Shown: piece after piece, positions 13,741-61,631 of the stretch | How the letters are laid out: every line of letters starts with the position of its first letter | Position numbering within the stretch: the stretch's first letter is position 1 | Assembly: GCF_964355755.1 (NCBI RefSeq) | Contig: NC_092676.1 | Coordinates: forward strand, 10,889,888-10,953,887 | Direction of reading: 5' to 3' | DNA: 64,000 nucleotides | Source of the DNA: Antedon mediterranea | Taxonomy: Eukaryota; Animalia; Echinodermata | The notes under the pieces: model-generated | The model's database searches: none | The model's input: the letters and a program-made list of their open reading frames with translations, nothing else | What the model was told of the DNA's origin: nothing | Position numbers and translations under genes: made by a program

Positions 13741-13829
13741 AAATCCTTTAAACTGATGAATTTACAGACGTGTTTCTCGCAAATCGTCTCGAGAATCGCA
13801 TACTCCCAGGAATATATATATATATATAA

Positions 13830-16530: not shown

Positions 16531-16967
16531 AAGGTAGCCGATCACTCCGGCCGCGCTTCACTCCGGCCGCCGTATCAGTTTAGCGCGATGTTATGCACTC
16601 CGGCCGCTATTCAATTCGACTTCCTGTGCAAAGGGACCGTTGGTATGGAGCGCCCATATCTACGTTTTCTATACTGTTCTTGGTGAATTTAAATGGAACT
16701 ACAGGGTAGTTGAATATTTATTAGCAACAACTTTACTTTTTTCATTAACAATAACATTCAAAGAAGTTGGAACTGCTTTTTCTTTCAAACTAAACTTAAC
16801 TTAACTTTTTCCTTTCAAATAATCAAATACCCGTCTAATTAATGCTTGAATAATAATATTTAATTTCTTTCTATGTACATTTTATAGCTTTACATTTATT
16901 AACATTAAAAATTAGTTAAAAACCTTATTTTTATAACACTTTATCTTGCCATACCCATACTTACTAA

Positions 16968-18885: not shown

Positions 18886-19063
18886 TTAAATTTTTTTTAC
18901 AACAGAGGGCGCTATGTAATGAAGACGTACAGTTACTGAGCTCCGTCAAAGCTAAAACTTATCGAACTCCCAAAAGTAAGTTAAAGGATGAAATAAACTG
19001 AACGTAAGTTTTAAACAGCTTCTACAATCAAATAAAAGTAAAATAAGAAGTCTATTGTAAAAA

Positions 19064-19879: not shown

Positions 19880-20218
19880 CCAGACCACACTCTGTTAGTA
19901 AGCAACACACTTATTTAACATGAGATGGTATTTATGTAATTTGGACAAAATACTATCCATGTCTTGTTATTATACACAGCCCCACATTGCTGTGAACTGT
20001 TGCATACAGTGCATTCATATAAGTTGGGGTTGTTTATAAAATTGTATATAAATTTGTATTACTACATTCATTAATAAGGGGTCACGGTAAAATAAAAAAA
20101 AAATATGACGGGGAGCTAATGTACAGATATAGCAAATAAGGTTATATTTATTATCAAATATTTCTTTTGTCATTAGGCCCTATAATTAACTGATATTTAT
20201 TTATATTAACGAAATTAT

Positions 20219-23200: not shown

Positions 23201-23254
23201 ACAATATATCTATGCGAAAACAACATTTGTAAAATATGTCTAACTTTAACTTAA
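20219..23254 (+). pseudogene. LINE ORF2: APE endonuclease + reverse transcriptase, two single-base frameshifts
   Basis: NCRSI, GLTETWL, IYRPP, GDFN, IDNIY, SDHF; NYRPISILP, DLSKAFDSIDH, GVPQGSILGP, FADDT. Frameshifts near 21400 (A run) and 21963 (T run). Confidence 0.92.
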
Positions 23255-28574: not shown

Positions 28575-30115
28575 ATGAAGCTGGCCGTGATTGTGTTCTT
28601 TGCATTGATTTACGCCATCGATGCCAGTTGCAGCTATCAAAGTAAGTGTTTCTTCAGGGGAACTAGATAACAACTACCTGTCAGTTGAAGGATTAACTTT
28701 TAAATATAACTGGTCACATGACTGCTTTTTATGGGAGCGATTACATTATAAGTTGTTTTAGTATTTTTATTTAGTTACATATGGCGTTTCTAAGAGGTTG
28801 AAGTCATTAAAATAAGAACATAATTATTGTTGTCATAATAAACAAATTCAGACCTACTACAATTCATTTAAAGCAAAATGTGTGGATAACCTTGGCAAAC
28901 GTTACAAACCGGGCAGACGATGGACTGAAAGGTATGAGAAGTATTGCAGAGAATGTTATTGTTCCAAATCTGGCGCGGGAGCATCATGCTGCAGCACGTA
29001 CGTATTGAGTTTAACTCATTGTTTTGGAACTAACAAATCTGTAACTCTCCAAATATACAATGTTATCCGGGTTATTAGTACATTTGTGATATTTGTCTAA
29101 AAGACAAAGTACAACTGTACGTAGGCCTACTTCTTACTCTAAACATTTCAGTGTGGAGTAGGGTTCCAAGTAAAATATTATTTAGGTTTGTTTTGTCCTT
29201 TTCTAAAGATATATCACTACAACAGCCTGGTAAAGGGAATATGAAGTTTCTGTAACTGTATTCACTAACATAAAAAAAAAACATAGGTCTAATGATACAT
29301 TTCAATATAATGGAGACGTTATTATTGAACTTTTCTGTCTTCTGTGGGTTCGTTCCATATTAATGTGTATACAAACAAATTGCCGTCACGTAATAAATTA
29401 CGTAATGTCACAAAAATTTCACATAACAATCAAAATAATTATCAGTTTGTTGTAAAAGTAAAGTTATAGATTATTACACAATTAGGATTAGGAATTCATA
29501 CAATATATTTAAGGTCATACATTCAGTAGTTTCAATTTACAGAAAAAACAGTCTCACAAATATTCATTATTTTCTATAATTTCATTAGTGAATTAATAAT
29601 TAATTCATGTTATCGGAATTATTTATAACAGACATGATGATCATCAACACGAATGGCGCCATCACTGACACCATAGTTTGATGAACTGGCTATATATTGA
29701 CGAATTCCACCTAGAGTTTATTAAATCAATTATCAAAACAGTCATTAAATTGAAATACATAAATGGAAATAATTGTTATAGGGCGTGTATTATGATAGTT
29801 AATTGTATTAAATTATGTATAACTACTAGTGTAAATTGGTAACCAACGGAAGATGGAAATGAATATCATTTTTCCGTTTTAAAAAACTGGAAAAATGTTT
29901 AATTAGTTTAATTACTTATAAGCCAATTTCTTTTCCTTGTAGTCATAACACGTTTATAATGATATATTGAAATTGTTCTTTTTAGAGGTTATATTTCTAG
30001 TTACCCAGAGCACTGTGTTGACATATTTGATAACCAGAATTGCGTTCATCACGTCGTCGAAAAGTCAGACCCATGCAAACCATGTTCTGGACCAATAGCT
30101 GCTGTTGGAAAATAA
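28575..30115 (+). CDS. Secreted beta-microseminoprotein (MSMB/MSMP)-like protein 1; coding exons 28575-28641, 28874-28997, 29986-30115
   Basis: Spliced product MKLAVIVFFALIYAIDA-SCSYQTKCVDNLGKRYKPGRRWTERYEKYCRECYCSKSGAGASCCSTGYISSYPEHCVDIFDNQNCVHHVVEKSDPCKPCSGPIAAVGK*. Signal peptide, PSP94 Cys pattern (C..C..W..CxxCxC..CC..C..C..VEKxDP..C), GT-AG introns in phases 1 and 2. The acceptor at 28873 is a weak AAG. Confidence 0.85.
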
Positions 30116-30909
30116 GTAGGCCTAATCTTGTAAATTTCAAGAAACTCCAGCTTCTTTTTTTAAACTGTTATTGTTATTAAAAATGTTTAATATTCAAAAT
30201 GTACTGTATGTGCTATTCAAGAGCTTAAATCAAGGAACTAAATGTCAATTTTCAAATTAATTATTTATCCTTTAATCTGAGGCAAGTAAAAACAGTTATA
30301 AAAATGTAATTGGAAAAATTGAAATAAAATTATAATGATTATTATTATTACTGTGGTTTCTCATCAATTAGCAATATTCAATGTACAAATATGACTCAAT
30401 CAGCCAATTTTCAAAACTAACACAACAAAGGTCGTTATTACCTTGTCTTGCGATCTATACATTACATTAGTATTTTGTTTCTTTGAATCATTTAAAAAAA
30501 AAAGTTTACTTAATAATAAACATAAAATGTTATAAATTACTTGAACCAGAAAATTCACAAATTTAGAAAATACCGTAAGTATTAGGATTGTAACATTATT
30601 ATATTGGATAGAGAATGTTTAGCCACATGTTATAATAAACTATATTAAAAGTTGACGTGAACTACTACAATTGACATTGGACATATCTGTACATATTTAA
30701 AAAAAAACGAAACCCAAATTATGATTTTTTTTCCAAGAAATCCGATAAACTAAAGTAGTTCTTAAGGAAATACGCGATGGGAAGTTCCGGCTTAACACTT
30801 CCGAGTTTGTGCAAATAAGGGAGCAATTTGTGTTTCAACCTCTTAAAATCAATAGCAATAGTTGTACGATGTTTGAAATTGAAATCCTCAAGGCACCAAA
30901 GTCTCATGT

Positions 30910-32185
30910 GGATTCAATTCACATTTATTTACTCATCGTTTATAAATACAGTTTCATAGCATAAATGATGGCAAGGATCCTGCATAGAGAAGTTTACACT
31001 TCTGTTTTCGCAGGACCCTTTTACATAAAAAACATAAAACAATAAACACAACATATTAGATACAAAATAAAAAAAAAAACATTTCCTATATACATTTTAG
31101 AGTTGTTCATCATCAAAAAGCGATACTGTTTTTCTAACATGATTTTGTATACATTTTGTCTTAAAAAAGAAGATATTCAGTTTATTACTTCCAGTACATG
31201 TGGATTCTTTCTATATATATTATAGCAAAAGTATGAATACATATAATATAAAACAGGCTATGTGTGTATACTCGCACACACCAACACAAATGCATAATAT
31301 ATGCATCTATATTCTATGAGTGAAGCATTTTAAGTTCTGTAATTCGATAAAATGTCTCTTTTTACATATTTTTTTAGTATTTTATAATTTTTGTTAACAA
31401 TATCTAAGTGATTTCTACAGAGCTCGTTCCATAGTTTCGGTCCGTGAATACTGATAAAATGTTGACCAGACGTTAACCTAGAGTATGGTTGTTTTACGCT
31501 ACAAATATTTCGAAGATTATGGGTAGTATTTTCGTTTCTTTTGAATATCATTTGGATTCGTCTGGGTAAAACATTGCTTTTAATCTGGGCCATGAAACCT
31601 AGGACGGTAACTCTGTTGATATCTTGTATGTTAAGTATATTTAATTGCTTAAACAGTAGCTCAGAATGTTGCCATGGCTTTTTAAATAAAATTATTCTAG
31701 CAGCCTTTTTCTGGAGTTTAAGAAGGGATTCTAGTGTACTATCATATGTACTGCCCCAAATAATGTTTCCATACTGAAGGTGCGGTAGAATTAATGTATT
31801 ATACAAATTTGTTAAAATATAATTAGGAAAAAAATGTCTAGTTTTTATCAATATTCCAATAGACCTAGCGGTTTTTTTTACTAATAAGCCTTATATGATT
31901 TTTCCAGCAAAGGTTCTCATTTATTACAACCCCAAGAAATGTTACATTTTTTTGTTGTTTTAAAGTAATGTTATTCATTTTCAATTCAATGTTGGTTGTA
32001 ATAATACGCCTTTGGGCAGTTTTAAAGAATACGTAATTTGTTTTGCTGGTGTTTAATAAAAGTTTATTAGCTTTGAACCACATATTAATTCTATCTAGTT
32101 CCACATTCATAGTGTTTGACAATGCGTTCAGGTTATTTCCACACTTGAATCCTGTTGTATCATCGGCAAAGCTAATTAATTCAAT
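30910..32185 (-). mobile_element. 3' fragment of a CR1/L2-group LINE
   Basis: FADDT near 32170, then WFKANKLLLNTSKT, FLGVVI, LYNTLILPHLQYGNIIWG and GPKLWN, followed by a 3' UTR. Confidence 0.88.
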
Positions 32186-32480
32186 TTGTGTACTTGAGTA
32201 CTAAACTAAAGTTGTGATAATTATGATATTGGCTCTAAAAGGATAAGCCAAAATTACACTATTAACGTTTAATTTAATCTACAACCAATGAGTAGATGAA
32301 TATGTTTGTTGTAGAGGAAAATGTATACTTTGCTCGTTTTGTGTGTGGTTCTGATATTGTACGTCACAATCCTAAAGAAGTTAAGTGAAAGCCAAGTTGC
32401 TGCAACACCATTGTTGTTGTTGTTGTCGTCGTCGTCATCGTCGTCGTCATCATGATTATCATCATGATTATTATGATATT

Positions 32481-42752: not shown

Positions 42753-45700
42753 ATGAAACGGTTGAATGTACTTCTTGTTGTAGCTGTGCTATATGTTGTT
42801 ATGTTCAAGGTTGATGCAGCGTGTATTCAACAACGTGAGTATGCCTAAAGGCCAATTTACACAGGCGAGCGGTACCTATCGAGACGGAGTTTCCGCTCAA
42901 TCGCCCGTCCGCGTTTTGTGTAAAGTCATAAAAAATAACATAGATTCTATGTTTTTTAATTCCGCTTACCCTCATAGATTACCGTTGTCACTTGTCTGTG
43001 TAAATTGACCTTAAAGCTTCTATTGAATGTTAATGGTTAACCTAATTTATCCATGAATATAAAACCTTATAAGAGCAGGACCGGTTGAGACGAAGTGGCT
43101 GACTGGCCTACTGCATGACTGCTTCACAATCAGCGATGAAAGAAACAGTAATACTTTTGTATAATTTAATTTAGAACTAAATATTAGAGATAAAATTTAG
43201 CTTGTCCCAGCTAGAATCCGGTATCTATCGAAACAAGGCCATATAAATGGCTGCAGTCGCGTGATCTAATTTGAGTTAGTGTTTACCGACCGACCAACCG
43301 ACCGACCAACCATCCGACCAACCGACCGACATAGTGAGCTGTTGAGTAGAGTAAAAATACTACAGTGGATGCTGCAATTTGCATTAAAGGAGAAGGTGTT
43401 AGATGAAAAAGGAACTCTTATAGATTATCAGGTGGCAAGAGGAGAAAACCAAGGGCTGGAAAGAGAAAGCCATACATGGAGATTCTTGATGATATTAGAA
43501 ATGTTGTAAAACAGAAATCGGGCAAAAAAAGTGCATATTAAGGTTTAACGAGCAGTGCGCGTGCGAAAATCTGTGCATTCAAGGCAATTTTTTAAACGCT
43601 TAAAATTTCCTGAAACATACTCTAATTTCATCGAAAATAAAATTTGAAAATTTTAAGCGCGCGTACGCATGCGTTATATGCACTGCGCACGTAATTGTAT
43701 TGCCATATGATGAAATATGACCTGAAATTTATGAGTACCAAATTTTATTTAATTGTGATTCATGCTTCTGAAGATATGATTACAAACGCGATTTCGTTAA
43801 ATCGTGCGTAGACCGCGTAATTTTTGATTGCGCACCGTGAAAACATGACCACATCGATTCATGGCCATAAGGAATATACTGTAAAAAATTGACTTAGCTA
43901 GATGAAACTGATATCAAGACAAGGCCATATAAAATTAGTGTTTACCGACCGACCGACCGACATAGTGAGCTGTAGAGTCGTAAAGAGTAAAAATAACATA
44001 GATTCACAATCAGCGATGAAAGAAACAGTAATAATTTTGTATAATTTAATTATAAAACTAAAAATTAGAGATAAAATATAAGGGTAAAAAATAAAAAAGG
44101 TTACGTGGCCTATAAATATATGTATCAATTTATAGAAACTTAGATGATTATAGATGACATAGCTATAATATATTAATAATATTACTAATAAATTACTAAA
44201 TTCAAAGATGCTGTGAAACTTTGTACACTTTGATGAATAAAGAAATAACGTGAAAACGCGTTTGACATGTGTCATTTGGAAAATTCCAGGGGGTTCACTT
44301 GTGTTTTCATTTTACAGTACAGTAATACAATTATCTTTATTGAAAAAGCATTATCTTCGGATCACAACAGACTAGACTTTACTTTCTTCAAAGTTTACGA
44401 AATTACATGTAGTAGTAATACAAAGTTAAATTATGCTGGTAGTATCACCATAATAGATGAACTGTCATGGTATTATTTTTGTATGTACATTATAGCAGGA
44501 TGTAAAGACAACGAAGGAAATCTGTATAAATCTGGTGAGCAATGGACAACTAGAAATGATGATCACTGCATAACGTGCACTTGTTACGGCGAAGTTGCTG
44601 TTTGCTGTTCAACGTAAGTTTAATCCTGGTTGATGATTGCTTGTTGGTTTCTTCATATTCCTTGTATTGCTATGCAATAAATAACTGTACAGTAAATCAA
44701 TACGGTATATTAGTATAAAGTAACATGTCTTACGAAAAGTGAAGACCTGTTTAACATCCTCCATACATAGATAAGTATGGACAGTATCATGTATAAAATA
44801 ACTTGTTTAATTTTCTTGTTAGTATTATTCATACCATTTATTATTTCTTTAGTTTACTCAAAGCATACATTAAGACGTAGTTATGGGATGAGTTACTACA
44901 AAATTTCGTTTCAAAATCAATCGAATCAAACTTTAAAATGTATTATTAACACCTAAATAGATTCCTGTCATTTGATTGGACGATTGTGGGTCACACGATA
45001 AAGAGTAAGTGAACTATAAATCGTTCCACATAGCGCGGTGAATCCAGAATTTAACCGGAAGAAGCCTGGACAGCGTAACAACAATGCTTTGCGCATGCTC
45101 CAGCGGCTTTGCGCATGCTCCGTTAAGAGCGCGTTGAATTACTATCAACCGGTTGCATTATTTGTTTTCCTATTTGGTTAAGGCAGAAACTATAGAGGAT
45201 GTGCATTTATCATGAATATTCAAGATGCATGCCTGAGCTCATGACGTCATACGTCAAAACACACTTCCTGCTGATGCATCGCGCACGTTCGCACTATCGC
45301 AGTGCAGATTGGAGTACTGTAGGCCTATTCTTTTTCTCTCGATGTTTTTGATAGACCTGCAATTTTTGTCGTTTTGTAAAAATAATGCATATGCAGTATA
45401 TAACTTTAAAACATTAAACCAAGTCATTTCTTGTTTTACATGTTCGTTATATTAAGGTTGATTATGGCTGGCCCAGTCGCGTGCGCAAATTTGAGTTAGT
45501 GTTTATCAACCGACCGCCCGACATAGTGAGCTATAGAGTCGCGTTTTGCACGCGACTAAAAAGAGAAAAACAATGCACTCGCGTCGAAAGTTCTCTCGGA
45601 GACGTTTCTAGGCCTATCTTAGTTTGGCTTAGTTTTGTAAGCCTAGCTGGTAAAGAGCGGTAGCGTACGAACATCGTACGCTAGCTATAGGCCTAGCCTG

Positions 45701-47374
45701 ACATTGTCGCCTTGCTGAATTGTTCCCTTTTCGGCAGAATCCGTTAATATGTAGGCCTAGCTATATGATATAATTAAATCTATAATCACAATTGATTCTA
45801 AGCTGTTGGCCTATTTACACTTAGAACTAATAAAAAAAAATAAAAAAATATATATAGGCCTATTTTCCGGGGAATTTTATGTAGGGGAATTTTACAGTAG
45901 GCGGAGGTTTGTACTCTCGAAGTACCCTCTAGTTTATTTTTGTTTTTGCATTAGCAGTTCCAAATGTTTTCCCATATAGGAATAATTCATGTTGTGAAAG
46001 TACAATGTGAGCCTAAGCATGAATGTATGTCATTTTAGTGTCAAATTATTAATCAATTTCATTTACACTCTTGCGTTTTGCAAATTTCATTTACACTCTT
46101 GCGTTTTGCAGCAGCTACACTAGTAGCGCGACTAGAGGTCATTTTCGATTACCGTGTGAAAACTATTTCCAAGGTTTTACATGGATATTCATGTATGGAT
46201 TCAGGACATCTATAGCTTCTACCTTAACCTAATAGGAACAAAAATAATTCCAACTGGAATAACAAACAACGCGCGAACTCTCATAACAACCGATCTCCGA
46301 TTGCAATTTTGCTATGTCGCGAGTGACACGATGAAATTACTCAATTATATAATGATAATGATGCAGACTAAAAACTACCAAAAACAAATTAAATATACGG
46401 TCGTTAATGCTATAGAAGTAAATACAGTACCTACTTTTTTGTTTAAATGTATTCTACTGTAGCTGATCCTACTATGCCCAGGCTAGCCTACGTTTCAATC
46501 TGAATCAAAATGTAGCCTAGACAAGGCTTACCTTCCTTTCATTCTATCTGAATTAAATCACAAGAATCTACTTAGATGTTATATCAAACAAATAATTTTA
46601 TTTTTCTGCTATGGTACAAATGCCATTCGGTGAAAGATGAAAGGTCATATTTCATCTTTCATCCCTTGAAATTATTTATTTTATACCATCACACTAAAAA
46701 ACGGTAACGTAAAATGACGTCACCGTTAAAGTGTGTCGTCACATCTATATATAAATTATGCTTAATTTTGACATAGGCGAGTACATTGGAAAAACCTCGG
46801 ATACAATCTCCGCCTTGGACACATACCTCATATATCTCAGATGTACCGTGAAACGTAGATTTGATAACATTAGTTCTCACTATTACGATATTGTTCCATA
46901 TTTAAATCTTAGGAAGATAAAGGGTTTTAAAACAAAATTTCTGATTTCATCGGTAGACTTTCAATCGTAGTCGGAAGTAATTTCCGGGTTCACGGTGAGA
47001 GTCATCACCTTTCAACTTTCTGGTTTCAACTAAGTTGGCCGTTGTTGGCGATAGCCATTTTACTTAATTGTTTATAACAATATATTTTGGCACATTTTTT
47101 TTTTATTCAGTGGAAAATAGTGACATTAAAATACAATTTCGGGGTATTTCATGAAATCCCCCGAATTTTGAAAGACTTATTATTTACTTCAATTAATAAT
47201 TATTATATAGCTGGCCGAATAAAGAATTATTTGTTTCATCACAGAATGAGATACACCAGTTACCCAGACCACTGTGCTGATATTTTTGACAAAGACAAGT
47301 GTGTGCATCATTTAGTAGAGAGATCAGATCCTTGCAAGAAATGTACCGGACCAGCAACAGGAGTTGGAAGATAA
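42753..47374 (+). CDS. Secreted beta-microseminoprotein (MSMB/MSMP)-like protein 2; coding exons 42753-42834, 44496-44613, 47245-47374
   Basis: Spliced product MKRLNVLLVVAVLYVVMFKVDA-ACIQQPGCKDNEGNLYKSGEQWTTRNDDHCITCTCYGEVAVCCSTMRYTSYPDHCADIFDKDKCVHHLVERSDPCKKCTGPATGVGR*. Same intron phases and Cys pattern as paralogue 1; NAGNAG acceptor at 44493-44498. Confidence 0.88.
42849..43011. mobile_element. PIF/Harbinger (Tourist-like) MITE, 163 bp
   Basis: AGGCCAATTTACACAG / CTGTGTAAATTGACCT with TAA TSD (42846-42848, 43012-43014). Confidence 0.8.
43231..43985 (-). mobile_element. Second HINE/DINE-like copy, in an intron of MSMB-like gene 2
   Basis: AAACAAGGCCATATAAATGGC (stem-loop) followed by AGTCGCGTG, (GACC)n, and a core matching 27474-27890. 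A short related copy lies at ~45470-45562 and a fragment at 1-70. Confidence 0.7.
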
Positions 47375-49340
47375 GAATTTCAATGCGATGGATCAGTAGG
47401 CCTGATATAGATTTCGTACTTATCAGTAGACCTAGTATGAAAAAATTCTATATTAGTTTAACTCACAAAAATAACGAATAAATGTTTTATGCATATGTAT
47501 TTACAAACACAATTTTGGTCTCACTTTTTTATATTCAAACTCAAATTTCGCGGCCCGACTCCACTTATGTTATGTTGATAACAATAGAAATTGAAAATGG
47601 ATCTTTTAACAATGTTTATTTATGAATTTTGAATCATAGTTAATTCTTTTAGTAACGATTAGTAGAGTAGATTTATGTGACTTATTTGAGGTAATTATTG
47701 TACGTATTGTATTGATAGTTCGTGTTGAAAATTGAATTGCCAAAGAATATAATAAACAAGTAGGCCTAAGTAAGAATCTGAACTCATCATTCAGATTTCA
47801 GTATCAACTACAGTATATTTAATCATTGTGTTGTTGGGAAGAGGAGTGGTCTAGATTACCAATGGTTTAATATTGACTATATCGGCGGATTAATATATCA
47901 AGGGGCAATACAACAAATACATTAACATGTGCCATAAACCACCAAGAAGTGAATGTTGTATAAAATTGTATAGGAAAAAAACAGCCTGAAACAACTATGA
48001 ATTCCATCTTTTATGACGATTCATCAGCCTAAATTTTACTTCTATGTAGAAAGGGTACTTTGTCAGAAATGTTATAAATCACATAAATGGTAATTCGTAC
48101 GACGAACCTCTGCCTGTACCTGTGCCCGACATATACAAGCCACAGTCGTCGATTTTTTTTCGTAAAAACCTGTATCGCCGACAAACGGAAGAAAATCGTT
48201 CATTAGATCATCATCAAATTCAACCGAAAAAAACCCCCACAGAGACCAAATATATCAAGAGTGGAGCAAGTACCACGACACAGTCCACCGACTGCAAAAG
48301 GACATATCATATCAGATCTCCCTATGTAATTTTATAATACTATTCCGATGCTTTATGGCGTATGTTTAATTTGATCTTTATTAATTTGCAGTACAATTTT
48401 TATTTGTTAACTACCGTACCTTCACACGCGCGGTCCGATCCGAATAAAAAAAAATAAAATGGCTATAGCCGGCCACGGCCAACTTAGTTGTTGAAACCAG
48501 GAAGTTGCAAGGTGAACATGAGTAGGCCTAGTAAAAATATCCTGGCCTAGCCCCCGTAGAGGGCATTTGAGGGGATGACATTAGTTAATCCTATTATAAT
48601 TATTATAATGGTAAACAATAGTAAGGATGTAAGACAATGGAGATGTTATATATTAATACACATATAATATAAAATTATTAAATAATAAATAAAATGTATT
48701 TGGTGATTTAGTCGCTGTAAGGAGAACAAATGGTTCCCAATGGGTAAGTATAAGATAATAGGTGTTATGTTTCGGATTATAATACAATGGTTGACATTGG
48801 GTGAGAAAGTAAGACAATATAGTTTTTGTGGGAACTGAATTAGTCATGGATACAAATAAAGATGCACCTGGTTGATTAAAACTAGTTAATAAAGTTGTTA
48901 TGGTGTTTTTGTTTAATCTATGCCGACATATACCTAAGGCATAAGTCAATTTGGTCCGGATATTTAGGATTTTAAAATAAAGGTTATTTAAATATGTAAA
49001 ATTAACTAATGAAGGTGTTCTTATTATTCTTTACCGACATGTACTTAACGGACAATGCAGTTGTTATTTAATTTGAAAAATACAATAGTTAACGATGGTA
49101 AGGAAGTTAGACAATGTATATTTGAATTAGTGGAGGTAATTTAAATGAGGGTAAGTATGCTTATTGTAGTACATATGCATTTGTTCCGAGAAATGTTAAC
49201 AAATAGGAACATCGGCAATATAAACAAAAGGTGTATTCTATAAGTTACAGTAGCGGTAATTTCAAATGATTTACAAAAAAGGTGTGTTAGTATAATTTAC
49301 AGTGACGGTTTTTTTTAAAGTTTCGCGGTCTAGCCCGGTG

Positions 49341-49678
49341 GCGATTTTTTTTTTTCGTACATAAGTTGGGGACCCCCTTATGAAACGTCACAAAATAAAC
49401 TATAATTTTAACACGTAATAAATTATATTAAAAACACCATAAACTAAAGGCTGATTATTTCGACAATCCACACAAAACGCCGCTATTCTTCTATGAAATC
49501 GCACGCCGCAACAACAGCGGAGATAGGCCTAGAATCGTACCGCACTTGTGTAATCACTTCTTGTTGCCATACGCTTGGGTGCACACGGAACAAGAAAATT
49601 TAACTGATGAATTATTCATGTTTATTTTGTGACGTTTCATAAGGGGGTCCCCAACTTATGTACGAAAAAAAAAATCGC
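49341..49678. mobile_element. Mutator-type MITE, 338 bp, ~60-bp TIRs
   Basis: GCGATTTTTTTTTTTCGTACATAAGTTGGGGACCCCCTTATGAAACGTCACAAAATAAAC is inverted at 49620-49678; 9-bp TSD AGCCCGGTG (49332-49340, 49679-49687). Confidence 0.88.
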
Positions 49679-49680
49679 AG

Positions 49681-51966
49681 CCCGGTGAGGGTGTTCGAGG
49701 AAGTGACGAAAATTTAGATTGTGATTACATTCAACTTCTTGATAAAAGCTCAGCTGATACTTTGTATAAACAATGTGAAGAAGAGATTGATTATTTTACA
49801 GATGATCTTGCAAAGGTGAAAGTGTTTGGTAGATGGTTTAATATACCTAGAAAACAGGTTAGTTTATCTTTATTTTTCTTCATGGTTTCATGACGTTAAT
49901 GTAGGCTACATACTATTACGTTTAAAAAGATGCATTTTTACATTTTAATTACCGGCCTACCGCACTGTTTTCGTTTTATGCAACAGAATAACAGTTAACC
50001 AGGCCTACCGCACTGTTTTCGTTTTATGCAACAGAATATTAACAGTTAACCAGAATCCAACTGATTATAATTGTATATACATAAGAGAAACATTTTTAAT
50101 AGTATGTTTCAACTCTGACAGGTTTCTTATGGTGATACGGGTTTAACATACAAATATTTAGGCAATATAGTGCCAGCCTTGCTATGGCCACCGTTCCTGA
50201 ACGATCTTCGAGATTATTTGAAAGAAGTCACAGGGTTCTACTTCAATTTTGTTTTGGTTAACAGGTACATATTTATTATATATCTATATATGTTTATATT
50301 TGTTATAATTACATTACAATTTGTTTTGTTTTTTTGGCCTATTTAATTTTAGTGCGTTGGGCTCTTATCAGTTGATCTCAATCTCAGGGGTGGCGCCAGG
50401 ATCTTCCCGACGCGGGTGCTACATTCCCCGACGAGGGGGCTATGCGAGCGAAGCGAGCATCACTAGGCTGGGGGACTGCGGGCCGCCAAGGGCCCCCCGG
50501 TGGGGGTCCAGGGGGAGAAGCCCCCGGAAGCAACGCGTTCTAGCGTCATTTGAGGTCTTTTTAATCAGATTTAGGGTAGCCATTTTTTCCATTTTTTATA
50601 ATGCATAAATAAAATACTGCGTGCAAAAAAACGATGCGCGATGACTGTTTCAATCCATATTTTTCAATTTAAAAAATAAAAGTTCAAAGAAAATTTAGAA
50701 AAATAGAGTTGGAGGTCCCGGAAATTGGACTTATTATACTTCAAAACATGAAACAAAATATATAAGTCCCTATCATGGTTGTGACTGAGCTAAGAAATGT
50801 TTGAAAAATAGAGATGTTAGGTCCCGGAAATAGTACTTCTTGTTCTTCGAAATATGACCAGCTTTATTGTTGGGGCTGAGCTAAGAAAATGTTTAAAACT
50901 AGAGCTGCATGTCTTCAAAAAAATTGCATTTTATACTGACAACCAAAACACTGCTTCAAAAAAGGGGCTGTACCAACGAAGTATCTGAACCAACCACATT
51001 TTACTTTAGGTCATTAGAAAGCTTGATTGATTAGCTTTTGCATGGTGAAACAGCCAATATCATTGGATAACTAGGTCAAACGTTATGAACGTTTTTGTAA
51101 AGATCTCAACAAATTGGCAAAACAAGCCTATTCTTTAACACAGGGCAATTTTCAAATCGTCTAACTTTAAAAATCAATGCCGACGACGTTTTAAGTTTTT
51201 TTTAAATTAAAAATAACATGACATCGTAGGTACTTAATTAGGCATTATAATGTCGAAACAGCCCAAAAATCGGACAGTCAATTAATAACAAAGTTACATT
51301 GAAAAAACCTAAAAAAATAGCTGTTTTTCGGTGATTTCGTGCCGTTTAGCGGAAATCGCCCGGATTTTTGGGTACATAAAACAAATTGTAATGAATAATG
51401 CAAAGCTTCCTTATGGTTACATTGTTTAACATTGATAATGATTTATTCTCCATTTTACTCTCAAGATTGTATAATTGAACAATATCAGTAATCAGTCTTT
51501 TCGTCAACTATTAGAATCTCTCACTTTTTTTAACCGCACAAAACTGTGTTTAATTATGTTGTACGGTTTATTGTTTTTATGCTAAAAAGTTAAGTGCAAA
51601 AAGGATATTTATTTTCTAGCTTAAATTACAGTACAATTTTTTTATTTTAATTTTTGTTTCTTTACTAGATATGCAGACGGTAATGATTCTATTGGAGAAC
51701 ATAAAGACGATGAGAAAGATATCAACAAATTTAGTTCAATCGCGTCCATTTCATTAGGTCAAACACGATTGTTTAGATTTCGCCATGGTGCTACACGTGG
51801 AAAGAGACACAAAAGAAGTATTGAACCAGTAAATGTTGATCTTAAACACGGTAGCTTACTATTGATGGATTATCCAACTAACGAGTATTGGTACCATTCA
51901 CTGCCTAAAAAACCATCCATCAAACTACGAAGAATAAATCTGACATTTAGAGATATTAAAAGATGA
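49681..51966 (+). CDS. ALKBH2: ALKBH2-like 2OG-Fe(II) DNA oxidative demethylase; exons ~49681-49857, 50122-50264, 51669-51966; start codon not found
   Basis: Spliced translation ENLDCDYIQLLDKSSADTLYKQCEEEIDYFTDDLAKVKVFGRWFNIPRKQ|VSYGDTGLTYKY...FNFVLVNR|YADGNDSIGEHKDDE...SISLGQTR...LKHGSLLLMDYPTNEYWYHSLP...RINLTFR. It is collinear with human ALKBH2; the HxD...H and RxxxxxR motifs are intact; introns are GT-AG. Confidence 0.88.
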
Positions 51967-52199
51967 GAAAAGGTCAGGATTACTTTAGAACGCAAATCTT
52001 ATTAGCAACAATTCATGAACAATTGTTCTAAATGTAATAGTTACATGTATCCATGTTTATCAAAATGTAATGGTTACCTAGCATACATTATTATTGGCGG
52101 CTGTCAAAAACTATTTTTAACAATTCGTTTCTTGTATCTTCCTTTTTTATTTATTGTAAATAATTTATTGTTGTGTTTGATTTAATTTTATGTTTTTAA

Positions 52200-52700
52200 C
52201 TTTTCGGACAAACAGAAAATCAAACAAAAACACTAATACTAATAATCATATTGATGTATCGATCTTCTCTCTAACCCAGATGTAGTTGTAAACGAAATAA
52301 ACCTAATTAATGACAGTCTTAAACAATGAAAATACTGTTAACAAAAAAAAAAGTAAAGGTAGCAATTGCTGCCTTCACCACGGCTACAGCTAGGTTGACG
52401 TATGAACTATTAGAACAAATTTCATTACTAATAAAACTAACCCTGACGAGTGGCAACCATCGTTTGGTGATTATTTGGGTTAACTAACAAACGAAATAGA
52501 TCCCAAAGACAGTAAATAATATATTTCTTGCTTCGTCTCGGGTGAGCCGAAAAATTACGTGATTATTATTAGATTCAGGTAAAACTGTTTGCAAAGTCAA
52601 AGGTTTGACTTTAAATTTCAAAAATTCAAAGGAAGTCAATTTTGAAATAATTAGTAACATGGTACAAGGAATGGGCCCGGAAAAAAATAACAACAACTAA
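52200..52700 (+). pseudogene. Protein-primed DNA polymerase B remnant (Polinton/Maverick/adintovirus type)
   Basis: FGQTENQTKT, DLLSNPDVVVNEINLIND, VAIAAFTTATARLTYELLEQ, WQPSFGDYLG*LTNE, FVSGEPKNY and GKTVCKVKGLTLNFKNSKEVNFE occur in the correct order; the YxDTDS motif is deleted; stops and frameshifts are present. Confidence 0.85.
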
Positions 52701-53582
52701 TTTAATTTAATTCTTCTTTTCTGTTGAATTATTATTATTATGTTTGTGAAGTGTATTGCAATAGATTTGTTTAATGAAATAAGTTAATTATGTTTTGACT
52801 TAATTTATGGCAGTGTAAATTTGTAAAAGTAGTTTTCCTATTTTAATTCATGGTAAATTTATTTCTTGACTTAATTCAATTTGTTTTCTGTTCTGTTGAA
52901 GTATTTTTATTATGTTTTGTAAAGTGTAGTGCAATAGAATGTGTATTGAAATAAATTTTGTTTTTAACAGCAACAATAAAAATGAAATTTGATCTTTGCG
53001 TGTTATTTAACTCCTGTATGATTTTTTTCTAATTTATTTATACAAAAAGAAAACAAGTTTTTGAATTTGTTAAATGTAATTGCAAAAACACATAATAAAT
53101 GATTGTGATTAAAAAATATTCTGTTTCCTTTTTTTTTTATTTTAAACAGTAGTATTTTTAACAGTAGTTATATTTTATATATAATAAGTGATATTACAAA
53201 AATAAACATACAAAATGTATAAAGCATAGACTTATTAAATTTAAATACAATTTCTTTATTTCAAAATGAATTTCATTTTCTACGTGTTTTCAATTTTAAA
53301 TCTTTTAAGAAAGACACAATACGTACTGCTAAAAAAACGCACAAAAAAGAAGACAAATTTGAGACGCACGGTATGTATAACGACACTTTCAATAAGAAGG
53401 CATATTATAAATGTATTTTTACCAAATTTATAAAGTAAATGGTTATTATTGAGAAATATACATTTTAGATAAATGATAACACATCTAAAATTAATTAGAG
53501 AGATCAATACAATATGGTGTTCATAATAATTTGTTTTGATGACTAGAGGAAACATCTGAAGACATTCAACGAAAAACAAGCG

Positions 53583-54140
53583 TTAACACCAGATACCAGT
53601 CACTAAGAATGCTACTACTCTGAAAAAAACATCTCCCTTCCTACACAGAAACAAATTCTGAACGAAAATAAAAGATAAAAAAATAAAAAAAATTAGTAAA
53701 CGAAACACGCGCATTATAAATAAAATGAATAATTTAAGAATATTTGTTAAACTACCCACGAACAAAAAACGAAACATACTAACCGATTCGTCGTCAGTAC
53801 GAAGTTCAAATAACGAAAACTTTTCCTTAAAAAATCCACAGGAGACACGTTTTACATTTTCTAACTGCAATTCAGTGTCAAATTGTGTCGCAACACATGT
53901 ACATACAACGAGTCCTGTCACAAGTATGCCGACATTTATTTTTCTATCGCTCATCATTTGTTCTAATACATAATACAGCGCTTCCGAAGAAATATCTTTA
54001 CACAATTCTAACACATTAAAATTGTTTTCCAACTCTTTACAAGCACAAATAGTACTCTGGAGGATGGGTGAATCCAAAACAACTAACCCCGTCAATTTAT
54101 ATTCAATGTATGCTAAAACCACTTCCTCTAAATCAACCAT
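53583..54140 (-). CDS. Intronless divergent Bcl-2-family-like protein (185 aa from the first ATG)
   Basis: BH4-like LEEVVLAYIEYKL (cf. Bcl-2 REIVMKYIHYKL), weak BH3-like LQSTICACKELENNF, BH1-like VLEQMMSDRKINVGILVTGLVV (cf. VEELFRDGVNWGRIVAFF), hydrophobic C-terminus; no clear BH2. Confidence 0.6.
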   Translation of the reverse strand: MVDLEEVVLAYIEYKLTGLVVLDSPILQSTICACKELENNFNVLELCKDISSEALYYVLEQMMSDRKINVGILVTGLVVCTCVATQFDTELQLENVKRVSCGFFKEKFSLFELRTDDESVSMFRFLFVGSLTNILKLFILFIMRVFRLLIFFIFLSFIFVQNLFLCRKGDVFFRVVAFLVTGIWC

Positions 54141-54779
54141 AACGCTCGACAAACAAATGATAATGGATGTAATGGTCAAGAAAGTTACAACTTAAAAGAA
54201 GTTGTAACATAGAAACTAATTTTGTCAGGAAATGTGTTTTTATCATTTATGTGATTTATTTGTGTTTAGAAAGTTACAACATTAACATTTAATTTGGTCA
54301 AAAAATGTGAATATACGGAGCCGATTGTAATTTTTAATCCTTAGTATAGTGAGAGATTTTATAAACAAAAAAAGAGCGAACGGAAATTAATGATTGCATA
54401 TTAGACATATAGAAATGGATTGAAATTAGAAATCCACATGATCAAAGAAAAGAAACCCATTGTTTCGACAGAAGCTAATGACATTTACAAAGGATGACAC
54501 AGAATAGAGTAAATACCGTATAACATAATTAAATTTTGTCGAGATAGTTGTCAAAAATAAATATATTATATTATACTGAATTTACTTTGTACATTTATTT
54601 AATTTAGGCCGTAATTAGGTTTGTTGTTCATTTATGATTGTGAAAAAAAAATACATACGAATAAAACAGCTATATATAAAAAAAAAAATAATAATGATTC
54701 AGTGTTTTAATTTTGTTTACCTGTCATTATGTTAATAAAACATATTCTAAATTTAATTTATATCATGTTAGATATATTT

Positions 54780-55490
54780 TCAAGGACATTTTTTACATAA
54801 AAATAAATTTGTAAAGAAATTTGTTACATAAGATAAATTTGTTAAGAAGCTTGTTTCATAAACATATTTGTGTAGATAAATTTGTTACATGAAAATAATT
54901 TTGTAAAGAAATTCGTTACATAAATTTATTTTTTACAAGAAGTTTGTAACAGAAAATTATTTTGCAAAGAATTAGTTGCATCAATTGATTTTATCAAACG
55001 TATGTAACATAAAAAATTATGTTGTTGATAAAAAATATTTTGTAATTCAGTCCATTTGCTCAGTAGTTTGTTTAAGTTGTTAAGTCTTGTTTGTGTAATA
55101 TTCTTGTAAATAAAAGAATTTATTTTTAACCGTAATTTTAATTGTAATTATTTTGTAAATATCATTTATGCATTTTTTTGGTGTAAATAATTGAATTTAT
55201 TTATACTTTTTGTATTGAAATAATTATACTAATTTTAAATATTATTATTTGTTTATAAATTTAATGGTGATTTTAGATTTCTTCTTCATTTAGTATGTCG
55301 ATTAATTTCAGATTCAGAAACATGTTACACAAGAAACAAAAATTGTCATGAAATTCGTTACATAAAAAATAATTTATCAAGAATCTTTTTTACATAAATT
55401 TAATTTTATCATTAAATTTGTTATAAAATGTATTTGTCATTAAATTTGTTACATAAAAAATAATTTTTTCATGATTCTTGTTACATGTTT
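54780..55490. repeat. Degenerate AT-rich repeats of AAATTTGTTACATAAA
   Basis: The motif (T/C)GTTACATAAA recurs many times at roughly 20-32-bp spacing in two clusters. Confidence 0.55.
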
Positions 55491-55609
55491 TCCTTTTGTT
55501 CAACTACTTATATGAAAATTCAAGTTAAGAACGCAATGACCCTTACCCTTACATTAAGTGTTTTCCTTAGGTAAGTGAATCCCTTAACTCATTTGTGAAT
55601 ACCCCTTAA

Positions 55610-58600
55610 GAGCCATTGTCTGTAAGAATCAAAGAAATATCAAAAAGAGTGGCAGACTCAAAAAAATGGATTTCTTTCAAATTTTGCACATGGCTATATA
55701 TGTCTTGAGAGAAATCAAATATGAAGTATTTTTTATTTCACACATATATTTCCATGGCAACGGCCAAATTTGTGTTTTTGACAAATTTTGTCCTTTTTTA
55801 AGGTTTTTTAAAATGGATATTGGTACTACTTTGATGAATGATATTTTTGTTTTGTTCATTTAATTATAAAAAATAATTAGTGTATGCATAATAACAATGT
55901 ATTGTGTACCTGTTTCATATTTTTTTTTTTTTTTTTATTTCATACTTTGGGAGATACCATTTATTTAGAAAAGGGTGTTTTTCACTTTTTTTAAATTGTT
56001 AAATGCAACTAAACTTTACTTCACCATAACGCCCAAAGAGGTGTATTTTTCAGCTGATTTATTACAAACAGGTAGTTCTATTGTTTAATAATTGATTTCT
56101 AAAATAAAATACTGGGGTAATTTAAAAATCTACAAGCAGTGTTGCCAGAAACATAGGCATTTTTATTTTTAAAAAATGGTATATTAGTAAAAACATTTTA
56201 TTTTCTTTGATTATCTGATTTGAAACTCATTGGTCAGAAAAATTCTTAATGTTTTATATAGTTCTAGTTGTGTTGTGAGAAAAAAATAATAATATTTTTA
56301 ATTATAGATTCTGTAATTTCCAGTTTTAATGTCATTTTATAGGTTATATCCTCTGGAAATTTGAATAAATTATCAGATCGTTGTGAATTTTAATCTTTGC
56401 AACAGATTACTCCTCTCTTATTTTGAAGCTCCTCTTTCATTTTTTTACTTCTTTTATTTGCTAACCTAAGCAGATCCCACATGCCCATCCACCACCACTT
56501 TCGACTACCACCCACACCCACCCACCATGTGATGGTTGGATTCAGTATTATTTATTAATTAATAATTATCTGATAATTATTTAATTTTCCTTAGTTATGC
56601 ATAGCAACAGTTACTATGGTAACTAAAATTGAGATATTCTTTAGATTTTTCATACTTACCTTATACAAATTTTAGTTTTACAAGGTCATATTCATAAGGA
56701 CTCTCTTCTGTGATTATTTTTATTCATGAAAACCCCATATTTTATTTACAGTAAGCGGCCACCTCAATTAACGGACGCACTTTGAAAAGCCTGTTTGTTC
56801 TTCCTATTAGTGCATTTGGTACCTACCGTAAGCGGCCACCTCCCGTAAGCAGCTTCGGGCACCTCTTTATACTAAAAATGAGATTTTTTGTATGATAAAT
56901 GACCTCCCGTAAGCGGCCACCCGAAAAATATGATACTTATTGCATGGACCTATGAATTAGAGGTCCATGTTTCTTTATATATTAGCTTTATTTCGAAGTG
57001 GTTTTAAAAACATTACTGTGAAGAGATGAGAAAACTACACAGATTTTGACCGACCATTTTTCATATGATAAAAGCTTTTAAAATGTGTCTGAAAATGCTA
57101 AAAAATACTAAACCACCTGATTAAAAATAATAATACAATTAGCTGGAAAATTGAGAGGCTCGTTTCGTTAAGAATATCGTGTATAGCCACAATACGTGAT
57201 TTTGGCCCTTTATCGGCAGAACCTCCCGTAAGTGGTCACCGCCCGTAAGCGGCCACTTTTCCAGGTCCTGAGGGTGGCCGCTTACGGGAGGTTCAACTGT
57301 ATTTAAGAAAACAATTATCCTTAGTTACGCATAGAAACAGGTTCTAAGATAACATAAATAATACATTTTGACATAATTTGACCCAACAAATGACCCTTTC
57401 ACAAGGTCAGACATTTTCTGGGATTCATTAGATAAGTAAATTTGGGAAAAAGTCGTGAAGCTATGTAATCAATTGTTTATAGTCATGAAACCCAATATTA
57501 AAAATATTATATATACTTAGTTACGTATAGAAACAGTTGCTACAATACACTATAGGTAAAATGTGTAAAATATAATTTTTTTTTTCATGAAAACTGCATA
57601 TTTTATTTAAAAAAAATTATCCTTAGTTACATAAACAGGTTTAAGATAACACTAAAGGTCAATTTTTTACGTTTATTCAGATTTGTCAAGACTTTCTTTC
57701 TGAGATTATTAGGATTCAGTATTTAAAGTAAATTTGACAAAAAGTAGAAATGTAAAACTATGTAGAAAAAATGTTTTGTATTTATGAAAAACCCCTTATT
57801 TTTTAAATATTTTCGCATAGAAACAGTTACTATGGTAAAATGTTGACCTCATTTGACCTAAGAATGAATGAATTTACAAGGTCAAGTTTTCATCACTTTA
57901 AGATTATTAGAATGTTTTTAAAAAAAAAATACTTTCCTTAGTTACACATAGAAATGGTTGCTAAGGTAACACTATAGGTAAAAAATAAAAATTGTTGAGA
58001 ATTATTATGAACTATCTTGTAAATGTTGATCAAACATTAATAGTTGTAGTAAAGTGGGGACCTGTCCTGTTTTGCATTCTGACCCCTTTTGACCTCAAAT
58101 GACCTACTTACAAGGTCAGATTTTTTGGGAGGTCCCTCTGTATCTCAAAATAGATGTAAAAATGTATAAAAACCATTGACGCAATTATTTCAAGTTTAAC
58201 ATTATTTTCCATCAACTAAATATTTCAATGCAAATACTGTTTTTCTGGCAATTAATTGAAATAAACCTGGCAACACATTCTCCTGTTTTATCTAAACTAT
58301 TCCTATGACTCTAGTAGCATTATGACAAGCCACATATACATTTTATTATTGGATTAGCCATATTTAAATTGTGTTTCATGTGTTTTGTTTGTTGATTTTT
58401 TGTGTGTATTTTTTTGTATTTTTCGTATTTTCCTGGCAACACAAAACCTATGTATGAAATTTGCCCCAGTATTTTTTTCGTGATTATTGTTGAAAAACCT
58501 ATTGACTATCAAATTATAAAACCTCATTGATATAAAAACACCACTTTGGAAGTTATAGGTACGTTTATGAGGTATACTTTTTAAAAAAAAATATTTTTTA

Positions 58601-58964
58601 AAAACACCCCTTTTTAAAATAATGGTATCAACCAAACTCCATTTTGTAAATTTTTTTTTTCTACATTAAATGGAACTCAATACATGTTGTTTATACTGCT
58701 ATAAAAAAAAACTGTATACTGTAAGTAATTTTGGTTAAAATAAGTATACAAGTTTGTACTTTTTCACTATAGAAAATCTGTGAAAAATGGCAAAAACATC
58801 AACATTTTGATAATTGACCGTTGTCATGGCAACGGAGGCTAAAAATTAAAGTGAATGTTGTAGATATGCTTTTTATTGAAATGTCTATTCATGGTAAAAA
58901 TTTGAGAGAAATCCATTTTTTTTACATCTGCCACCAAATCTTTGATTTTTACAGACAATGGCTC
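55610..58964. mobile_element. Kolobok-like non-autonomous element with long imperfect TIRs
   Basis: TTAA|GAGCCATTGTCTGTAA...TTACAGACAATGGCTC|TTAA (TSD 55606-55609, 58965-58968); RR..YY termini; inverted similarity continues for several hundred bp. Confidence 0.8.
56749..57299. mobile_element. Tc1/mariner (pogo/Tigger-like) MITE nested in the Kolobok-like element
   Basis: TA|CAGT...ACTG|TA with repeated CCTCCCGTAAGCGGCCAC sub-terminal motifs; the left TIR is partly deleted. Confidence 0.7.
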
Positions 58965-59315
58965 TTAAATTTCATTCACATTTATTAAAACAGTAACATT
59001 TGATTTTTAATAATAATATTAAATATTATATTCATATGGATTTTATAAACACACCTACTGTAGTGTTAATTGTCAAAAAACGACCAAACAATCCTAGGCC
59101 TAGCTAGGCTAAAACGCATAGGCCTAATACTAACAGGCCTACACCAGTAAGGCAAAAGGCACACCTTAATAATAAAGACGACCGGACACGTACGCCCGTA
59201 TTCTTAAACCGGACTTTAGTCGTAGTTCGAAGTTCGACTTGGAAAAGTCGTAGTTCGAGCTATTACTTCAAATTCGATTAAAAAACGAAGTAGTCGAAGT
59301 TTGCAGTTCGACTTA

Positions 59316-61631
59316 TAGTCCAGATCCCTATGTATTTTCGTGTGCAGATCATGGGGAAAGTGTAAACATTGTGTTTTATGAATATTTGAATCATGTTGGT
59401 TATAAAAACCCATGTTGTCAAATTTCTAAAATTTTTCTTTGACCTCTGACCTCAATTTGAATGTTTTGACCCATTGAAAACAAAATGATCATATCTTTGC
59501 AACGCTTACATTAAATGAAATAATTTTATTGTCAAATTATTTGGGAGATGCATATTAATATTCGTTCTAATGAAAAAGTTTGTCCAAAAATGGCTGGAAG
59601 TATGATTTTTGGCATATTTGACCTTTGACCTACATATCATATAACTCCATAACTAATAGTTGGACAAACTTCAAATAGGGCTCAAATTAATCTGAAGGTA
59701 TATGTTTCTATTCAGTCTAATAAGAACTTTTACAAGAAAATGACCCGAAATATTTTTATTGACCTTTGACCTGTACTGGTAGTACACATTTCTATAATCT
59801 CAAAAACTATTGGCCGTAAAATGGTTGTTTTTGTGAAATGGTTCGAAAAATTTACATTTATATGTTTTATAATAACAACATTTTATAGAAATGTAAAAGA
59901 ATTTTATTTATGATCACTAACTTTGTAATTTATTAACATCACTAGCATTTGTTATAATATTAAAATGTGTCATATTTGCTGATTTTAAGCACTTCACATG
60001 AATTTATCAGAAAATATGTGTATTTAATATAAAGTTGTTTTTTTTTTATATAAAGAAAATTTAATTATCTATCAAATAAGACTATTTTCAAATTATTATG
60101 GCTAAAACTTAATTAGATACAGGCAAAAAAGTGTATTTTTACTTATGTGAACAGCGCCCTCAATCTTCATTTTTTCTCAAAAAATACCACATTTTTATGT
60201 GGTTTCATAAACTTAGCTGGTTGTAACTTTTTAAAAGATTTGTTGTCAGTGACGTGTAACTTACATACACCTTCTACCATATATTAAGTAAGTTTCTGAG
60301 ATAAAATGAAAACAATATTTTTATAGCTTGATATTTTTCCTGAGGTTATTACACATGGTGCATGCTAAAAATATTTTGATTTTGTGCTAAAAATCCATCT
60401 TTTTGGTCCAGTACAAACAATCTTGTACAGCCATTCTTACACAAACAGCATATTTTATTGGAAAGATAATCACAATATCTATCCAATAAAATATGAATTT
60501 TGTGTATTAATATCTGCTAGATAGCTTTTATTAAACCAAAAAGATGGACTTTTAGCTCAAAATAAAAAAAAAAATTGTGTGTGTATCATGTAATAACCTC
60601 AACAAAAATATCAAGCTATCGAATATTTTTCTCAATTTTTTCAGAAACTGACCTAGTACGTTATAAAAGAGGTATGTACATTACAGGTTACTGTAAAAAG
60701 TCTTTAAAACAAAGTTATAACCTGTTTAGTTCAGGAAAACACATAAAAATGTGGTATTTTTTGGGAAAAAATGAAGATTGAGGGCGCTGTTCACACAAGT
60801 AAAAATACACTTTTTTGCCTGTATCTAAATAAGTTTTAACCATAATAATTTGAAAATAGTCTTATTTGATAGACAATTAAATTTTCTTTATATAAAAAAA
60901 AATAAACTTTATATTAAATACACATAATTCTGATAAATTCATGTGAAGTGCTTAAAATCAGCAAATATAACACATTTTAATATTGTAACAAATGCGAGTG
61001 ATGTTAATAAATTATAAAGTTAGTGATCATAAATAGAATTCTTTTACATTTCTATAAAATATTGTTATTATACAACATAATGTAAATTGTTCGAACCATT
61101 TCACAAAAACAACCATTTTACGGCCAATAGTTTTTGAGATTATAGAAATATGTACTACCAGTACAGGTCAAAGGTCAATAAAAATATTTCGGGTCATTTT
61201 CTTGTAAAAGTTCTTATTAGACTGAATAGAAACATATACCTTTAGATTAATTTGAGCCCTATTTAAAGTTTGTCCAACTATTAGTTACGGAGTTATATGA
61301 TATGTAGGTCAAAGGTCAAATATGCCAAAAATCATACTTCCAGCCATTTTTGGACAAACTTTTCCATTAAAACGAATATTAATATGCATCTCCCAAATAA
61401 TTTGACACTAAAATTATTTCATTTAATCTAAGCGTTGCAAAGATATGATCATTTTGTTTTCAATGGGTCAAAACATTCAAATTGAGGTCAGAGGTCAAAG
61501 ATGAATTTTAGAAATTTGACAACATGGGTTTTTATAACCAGCATGATTCAAATATTCATAAAACACAATGTTTACACTTTCCCCATGATCTGCACACGAA
61601 GGCACTTTTTTTGACATAGGGATCTGGACTA
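59316..61631. mobile_element. Academ-like foldback element, almost fully palindromic (2.3 kb)
   Basis: TAGTCCAGATCCCTATG / CATAGGGATCTGGACTA termini with TTA TSD (59313-59315, 61632-61634); arms mirror each other towards a centre near 60472. Confidence 0.82.

Follow-up and report, generated by a model that had tools for sequence, protein, structure and literature searches.

A compact block at 49.7-55.5 kb of a 64-kb stretch of genomic DNA from the feather star Antedon mediterranea (the window, to whose whole length all positions refer) carries a gene for the DNA repair enzyme ALKBH2, a remnant of a protein-primed DNA polymerase of family B (pPolB) and, convergent with both, an intronless open reading frame (ORF) that resembles Bcl-2 proteins. 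With a probability of about 0.55 we read this block as an internally deleted, left-truncated and non-autonomous Polinton/Maverick whose lineage captured a host ALKBH2 gene as genomic DNA cargo and which probably bore a Bcl-2-like accessory gene opposite it. Shared high contig depth and joints support the assignment of the three genes to one repeated Polinton-derived block, in agreement with the first-pass annotation of the window, which had assigned them to a single virus-like element. Gene order, strands and spacing were as described there: ALKBH2 reaches its stop at 51966, similarity to pPolB sets in at 52203 after a gap of 236 bp and ends at about 52700, and the convergent ORF follows at 53583-54140 (Table 1). 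The proteins closest to ALKBH2 and to the polymerase piece come from the crinoids A. mediterranea and Anneissia japonica. Evidence on other copies was drawn from protein records and short contigs of public runs.

Results

Contigs of the runs X1, X5, X9 and X10 were mapped over 44-60 kb and those of X5 and X1 over 51394-55650. Statements on contigs apply among the contigs listed, and summed contig depth is not to be equated with copy number. Pieces that appear single-copy have a depth of 47-51 in X1 and 155-202 in X5. Five features lie near 4,000 in X5, namely exon B (5,111), the joint 50311>51394 (4,223), an intron-2 contig (4,127), a terminal contig at 54967-55312 (4,073) and the joint 52161>52638 (3,760), by which 52161 in the ALKBH2 flank is brought next to 52638 in the polymerase tail. 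In X1, the window's ALKBH2 family has a depth of about 200 and the joint 52200>53222 one of 138. The ALKBH2 flank is connected to the right arm in three junction forms, that of the window, 52161>52638 in X5 and 52200>53222 in X1. On our reading, these are non-autonomous elements of one family that have a right arm in common and show nested deletions, and some of the elements carry ALKBH2.

The window copy of ALKBH2 is spliced, with three exons and two GT-AG introns, and its iron and 2-oxoglutarate motifs are intact: the 2-oxoglutarate-Fe(II) domain has the HxD...H iron ligands and the RxxxxxR motif, present in the last exon as RINLTFR. Its closest relative is the 268-amino-acid protein P0001, to which similarity extends from residue 71 only, starting at about 49702; tblastn gave no match to residues 1-70 of P0001 in the window and no upstream exon. 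The coding sequence is incomplete, with the first ~70 codons missing, whereas the relatives P0001 and P0018 are complete. Over the core, identity amounts to 95% with P0018, 80% with P0019 and 74% with the Anneissia protein. A miniature inverted-repeat transposable element (MITE), found at very high contig depth, forms a separate insertion immediately left of the truncated gene, and the ALKBH2 start proposed earlier, 49681, falls inside its 8-bp target duplication. Another insertion occupies intron 2 and is skipped by contigs of X1, X5 and X9 (joint 50311>51394), which represent other copies that lack it. Relative to P0018, two of nine changes in the window copy lie at conserved sites, with 2.7 expected, a comparison of low power and too few changes to conclude from. 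The suggestion that the cargo kept its open frames while the polymerase decayed is not supported by this gene, which is truncated at the 5' end, has a transposon in an intron and has accumulated changes that do not avoid conserved sites.

An origin as a viral-type AlkB was rejected since the window copy nests within crinoid ALKBH2; it was instead copied recently from the host's own gene and retains the intron positions found there. A retrocopy was rejected as well, since introns are present. The intron positions are common to the window copy and the host gene, in that the isoform P0002 resumes at the middle exon, and a divergent contig at single-copy depth in X5 begins matching at the last-exon acceptor, as the window copy does. 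Because host intron positions are retained, we infer that ALKBH2 was captured at the level of DNA.

Antedon has 18 ALKBH2-like records across eight large contigs, the label ALKBH2 resting on database names. In a tree of 28 rows, built without ALKBH3 and without two partial records, the window copy falls inside the crinoid clade (support 100/98). Three Antedon groups were observed: the window copy with P0001 and P0018 (100/99), the largest group with 12 rows that include tandem-PC4 fusions (100/99), and P0019 with P0002, two isoforms of one long gene (100/97). P0019 is likely the host ALKBH2 gene, but its grouping with Anneissia P0031 is weak (63/44). Changes between the groups avoid the columns that are invariant in 10 non-Antedon sequences (2/33, 0/35 and 2/29, with 9-11 expected; P<0.003). 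As to a separate host ALKBH2, a point raised in the first-pass annotation, there is the full-length P0019, with 80% identity, and one divergent last exon has single-copy depth in X1 (49) as well as in X5 (165); a second divergent last exon has a higher depth (867 in X1, 566 in X5). The window's own family lies about 4 times (X1) and about 25 times (X5) deeper than the single-copy-like pieces, and the window copy is not the single-copy host gene.

The polymerase remnant comprises about 165 codons, in three frames and with stops, that correspond to residues ~474-641 of P0033 (E 3e-10) and ~310-486 of P0032 (E 1e-14), both members of PF03175. Identity ranges from 55 to 92% by piece, and crinoid pPolBs are closest. 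The stretch with the YDTDS motif is missing, so that the remnant cannot be active, and the last ~45 residues relative to P0032 are missing too. The earlier description as a decayed pPolB was right as to the presence of a polymerase remnant, but this is only a C-terminal piece, and the rest was mostly deleted rather than eroded. Because polymerase contigs of greater divergence, present in both X1 and X5, cease matching at 52700, this position is likely to be a second deletion junction, and the AT-rich spacer at 52701-53582 probably marks the join left by the loss of the core genes.

The Bcl-2-like gene stands as an ORF: a length of 185 codons was reached in none of 500 shuffles of the surrounding 900 bp, in which the maximum was 99. 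Its family assignment is less secure, the sole Pfam match being PF00452 at E 0.14 (13.1 bits, below the gathering score of 31.4) and the Foldseek matches having E values of at least 0.3. Single-sequence models of the ORF were poor (predicted local distance difference test scores of 39-53). With a low-confidence model of 130 residues, the top 12 Foldseek matches in PDB and 34 of the 42 rows shown have the Bcl-2 fold, all at E 0.3-2.7; among these rows are A52, A49, FPV039 and 4k5a/b, which we take to be of this fold. Searches of VIA and BFVD with low-confidence models returned unrelated helical proteins only and no Bcl-2-fold rows. A hydrophobic C-terminal anchor is indicated by 19-residue hydropathy windows of at least 2.0 that start at residues 133-149. 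No sequence relative was found among 99 candidates, 1.84 billion representatives, the PDB sequences (E<=10) and NCBIfam, or in viral or metagenome contigs, and the ORF is not in the exact-sequence collection. The model-based matches suggest that a Bcl-2 fold is likely for the product of 53583-54140. Near the 3' end of the ORF, other copies have contigs that depart from the window sequence, so that the exact C-terminus of the ORF may be specific to the window copy.

Although no Polinton terminal inverted repeat (TIR) had been seen and a left end was indeed not found, a candidate right end motif, ACTACT, follows the two subterminal tandem repeat arrays. An alternative Maverick end motif is (AG)3//(CT)3. 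The motif (ACT)2 is the commonest at Maverick ends (PMC8097293; this and the other papers cited were accessible in part, and statements on them are limited to those parts). By chance, about 0.019 such hexamers are expected in the 57-bp gap that holds it (~2%, a post hoc figure). Another repeat starts just right of ACTACT at about 55543, where X1 has loose contig ends. The window contains no inverted partner of 54501-55520, and the left end may be deleted. The inverted repeats 47005/48515 and 55594/58980 were rejected as ends of the element; they belong to other repeats. In the related loci L002, L023, L044 and L062, no inverted repeats beyond microsatellites were present, which left no terminal comparison.

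Related polymerases occur in 80 metagenome loci (420 kb in total) with a pPolB identity of only 37-53%. Some elements among these loci encode an integrase, A32 ATPase, capsid or adenoviral-type protease, and because the related polymerases sit with such genes, the fragment in the window is of Polinton type. With a PC4-domain profile, tandem-PC4 ORFs were detected in two of the 80 loci, L025 and L023, in both just outside the integrase; Pfam confirmed them and added a single PC4 in L021. Of the largest Antedon ALKBH2 group, four records were scanned; in three, ALKBH2 is preceded by two PC4 domains, and the fourth gave a weak partial match. The PC4-type ALKBH2 P0004 and the pPolB P0033 are apparently encoded on the same contig with accessions 11 apart, which hints at a second ALKBH2-pPolB locus; the chance of such proximity is 1.3%, calculated post hoc and on the assumption that accession numbering follows position. 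A PC4 cluster is rich in Preplasmiviricota (Atlas score 0.86), which we treat as a lead only. Scans of viral contigs with PC4-ALKBH2 and pPolB yielded nothing useful, and a match to L001 was rejected as an unrelated giant-virus-like endonuclease. The domain order is CARD-PC4-PC4 in L023:14154-15227 (-) and PC4-PC4 in L025:9907-10677 (-), and the cluster of the latter includes Ostrea edulis proteins.

Table 1. Features of the ALKBH2-pPolB-Bcl-2-like block and its immediate surroundings.
Feature	Position	Strand	Characteristics
MITE	49340-49678		~60-bp TIRs; 8-bp target duplication 49332-49339 / 49679-49686
ALKBH2, first retained exon	49708-49857	+	tblastn 96% to P0001 residues 71-124; GT donor
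ALKBH2, middle exon	50122-50264	+	tblastn 90-92% to P0001/P0018; AG and GT splice sites
Insertion in ALKBH2 intron 2	50312-51393		1,082 bp; 16-bp TIRs; joint 50311>51394
ALKBH2, last exon	51669-51966	+	Pfam PF13532 E 4e-21; 96% to P0001
pPolB C-terminal remnant	52203-52700	+	Stops, frame changes, internal deletion; both ends truncated
AT-rich spacer	52701-53582		22% GC; ~95-bp direct duplication
Bcl-2-like ORF, intronless	53583-54140	-	185 amino acids; six predicted helices and a hydrophobic C-terminal segment
Subterminal tandem repeat arrays	54788-54992, 55317-55486		31-32-bp units; high depth
Candidate right terminus	55503-55508	+	ACTACT = (ACT)2; Maverick-type end motif

Discussion

In the history that we propose, a copy of ALKBH2 would first have entered the accessory region upstream of pPolB. 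Deletions would then have taken most of pPolB and all core genes up to the right accessory region, after which intact relatives could have copied the shortened element in trans. The window copy would finally have lost its left end and gained two small transposons, and would now be drifting. In the parent, ALKBH2 might have reversed N1-methyladenine and N3-methylcytosine on element DNA, single-stranded during protein-primed strand-displacement replication, and so have kept the template readable, and the Bcl-2-like protein might have delayed the death of the host cell. Lesions of this kind arise mostly in single-stranded DNA, and long single strands are displaced by protein-primed replication.

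A more far-reaching proposal, which we put forward only tentatively and at less than even odds, is that feather-star Polintons captured ALKBH2 and that one lineage fused it to its own tandem PC4 single-strand-binding module. The result would be a virus-encoded, PCNA-independent repair of displaced strands, or of 3-methylcytosine stemming from silencing host methyltransferases; 3-methylcytosine is a by-product of cytosine methyltransferases. The PC4 fusion would re-target ALKBH2 to single strands without PCNA, and the 18 scattered Antedon records would be mostly Polinton cargo. ALKBH2 itself removes N1-methyladenine and N3-methylcytosine and binds PCNA (PMC10060643).

Several observations weigh against a Polinton that captured ALKBH2. 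None of 222 ORFs from the related loci matches the window at E<1e-3, in line with the annotation, which had noted no integrase, ATPase, capsid or protease; retrovirus-like integrase, packaging ATPase, protease and major and minor capsid genes all went without a match in this search, and because these core genes were not found, the block is classed as a deleted derivative and not as an autonomous element. The window holds neither a left end nor a target-site partner. No listed contig spans the distance from ALKBH2 to the Bcl-2-like ORF; the two are linked through a succession of short contigs, and the window itself may come from X1. In X1, depth is 1,000-3,300 along the arm that runs from the polymerase tail to the end, against about 200 for the window's ALKBH2 family, so that most arms in that run lack this family; because of this low share, ALKBH2 is less likely to be a fixed part of the arm. 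The 80 related loci, which are short and distant, yielded no AlkB, and a scan of 107 of their 222 ORFs revealed no Bcl-2. The constraint seen between the groups may date from life as host paralogues. Furthermore, the window's ALKBH2 subfamily has no PC4, and the preference of ALKBH2 for double-stranded DNA (PMC10060643) weakens the single-strand argument for this PC4-less form.

Some of these points suit a passive hitch-hiker, in which a defective Polinton derivative picked up ALKBH2, was multiplied in trans only and never served an autonomous virus. We consider this unlikely, although no intact parent element was found in the material searched, most of pPolB is removed at every observed junction, the majority of X1 right arms are without the window's ALKBH2 family, AlkB is missing from the related loci and the window copy is truncated with no sign of constraint. 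What speaks against a mere passenger is the constraint seen in two multicopy groups, each ~15-20% distant from the other and from what is taken to be the host gene, and the fact that many records have PC4 fused in frame, suggesting selection on the fusion protein. A juxtaposition, in which a Polinton right arm came to lie beside a paralogue of host ALKBH2 and segmental duplication, a Helitron or Pack-type capture then multiplied the two together, has to contend with a repeated block that ends at a Maverick-type motif, with a sister group that has a Polinton-type tandem PC4 module, and with an arrangement in which pPolB and ALKBH2 point inward from one side and an accessory ORF from the other, which is the published Maverick architecture and that of L023 and L025. 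We regard it as improbable, even though it would fit the retained host introns, the repeat-dense window and the missing left Polinton end, and although depths of 2,000-4,400 also occur at 48.8-49.3 kb in X5, so that the repeated unit may reach further to the left. That the window simply contains the ordinary host ALKBH2 orthologue with a Polinton fragment downstream by chance is very hard to credit: the gene is spliced with intact catalytic motifs and the tree offers no firm orthologue (P0019 and Anneissia P0031, 63/44), but the copy lacks its 5' end, a full-length and more divergent P0019 exists together with the divergent single-copy-depth exon in both runs, and the depth of the window's family exceeds that of single-copy-like pieces ~4-fold in one run and ~25-fold in the other.

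Polinton relics, Bcl-2 accessory genes such as those of adintoviruses (PMC8502044) and intron-bearing cargo are already known. Adintoviruses and animal Polintons may carry Bcl2 or IAP accessory genes (PMC8502044), and like the block in the window, adintoviruses are pPolB elements that have a Bcl-2-like gene without introns at one of their ends; in the labels of Suppl. Fig. S2 of that paper, Bcl2 stands beside integrase and 'Oncoid' beside PolB, the order being taken from the page layout. In contrast to them, the window copy has no core genes and its Bcl-2-like ORF has no detectable sequence relative. The string 'alkb' does not occur in the main text of PMC8502044 or in the readable part of its supplement. 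Nematode Mavericks likewise have intron-containing host-type genes in a terminal accessory region (bioRxiv 10.1101/2022.07.12.499685); their cargo consists of WASP proteases and KRMA kinases moved between species, whereas that of the window is a conserved DNA-repair enzyme nesting among crinoid genes. Vertebrate Mavericks have inward-pointing modules and flanking accessory regions, as seen in the window, and the end motif (AGT)2//(ACT)2, of which the window has a candidate, ACTACT, on the right only; 96% of vertebrate Maverick loci are eroded (PMC8097293).

The AlkB oxygenases of giant viruses are a further case of a DNA virus lineage with a PF13532 demethylase, there as scattered captures in Mimi-, Marseille- and Phycodnaviridae (PMC10598087); in the window, by contrast, a Polinton-type element contains a spliced, recent copy of host ALKBH2, whose sister group includes PC4 fusions. 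Catalytic motifs are shared with animal ALKBH2 in general, the window copy having 57% identity with mollusc and shrimp ALKBH2 and 74-80% with full-length crinoid genes, but in Antedon the gene is multicopy and dispersed, and it either has a shorter N-terminus (P0001 type) or bears tandem PC4 domains in its place. AlkB as cargo of a Polinton was not found in the literature searched, including the readable part of bioRxiv 10.64898/2026.10.13.758929, with subscription papers, Repbase and some supplements outside its reach. If the proposal is right, a central enzyme of host DNA repair was taken over by a virus-like transposon, maintained under constraint and given a new target through domain fusion, and whether Polinton cargo is of use to the element, an open question, would become testable on this case. 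The odd expansion of ALKBH2 in a feather-star genome would then be mobile cargo and not a host adaptation. The significance is limited in that the window copy itself is a fossil and that Bcl-2 genes and intron-bearing cargo of Polintons were known before.

Other features of the window and of related loci

The window consists of AT-rich animal DNA with many fragments of long interspersed nuclear elements (LINEs) and tandem repeats, and Rfam gave no match within 47-58 kb. The relic lies downstream of exons of small cysteine-rich host genes (PSP94/VWC-like, Pfam E 0.003-0.02) at 44490-44617 and 47258-47375 (+), which are at single-copy depth; the stretch 29999-30116 resembles them, and these are apparently tandem paralogues. 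Left of the MITE, the AT-rich stretch 48806-49339 has a depth of 2,000-4,400 in X5 and may be part of the repeated unit of the relic or of a different repeat. To the right of the relic lie two large TIR-bearing elements at 55594-58980 and 59337-61600, the second with nested arms of 539, 152 and 219 bp and 93-96% complementarity. A 173-174-bp satellite at 3976-6459 forms two arrays of opposite orientation with ~260 bp between them. LINE fragments with ORF1-like, endonuclease and reverse transcriptase frames were found at 11225-16541, 19061-23251 and 31333-32200, and the LINE at 19-23 kb is nearly full-length.

Among the related Polinton loci, L012:8353-8868 and L049:4175-4720 (+) contain a gene for a TATA-binding protein immediately after an integrase-sized ORF (Pfam TBP E 4e-24 and 4e-27, respectively). 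GRF zinc-finger ORFs are located upstream of pPolB at L027:1816-2538 and L041:493-1125 (+), and two tandem IAP genes (BIR plus RING) directly follow pPolB at L062:5460-7332 (+).

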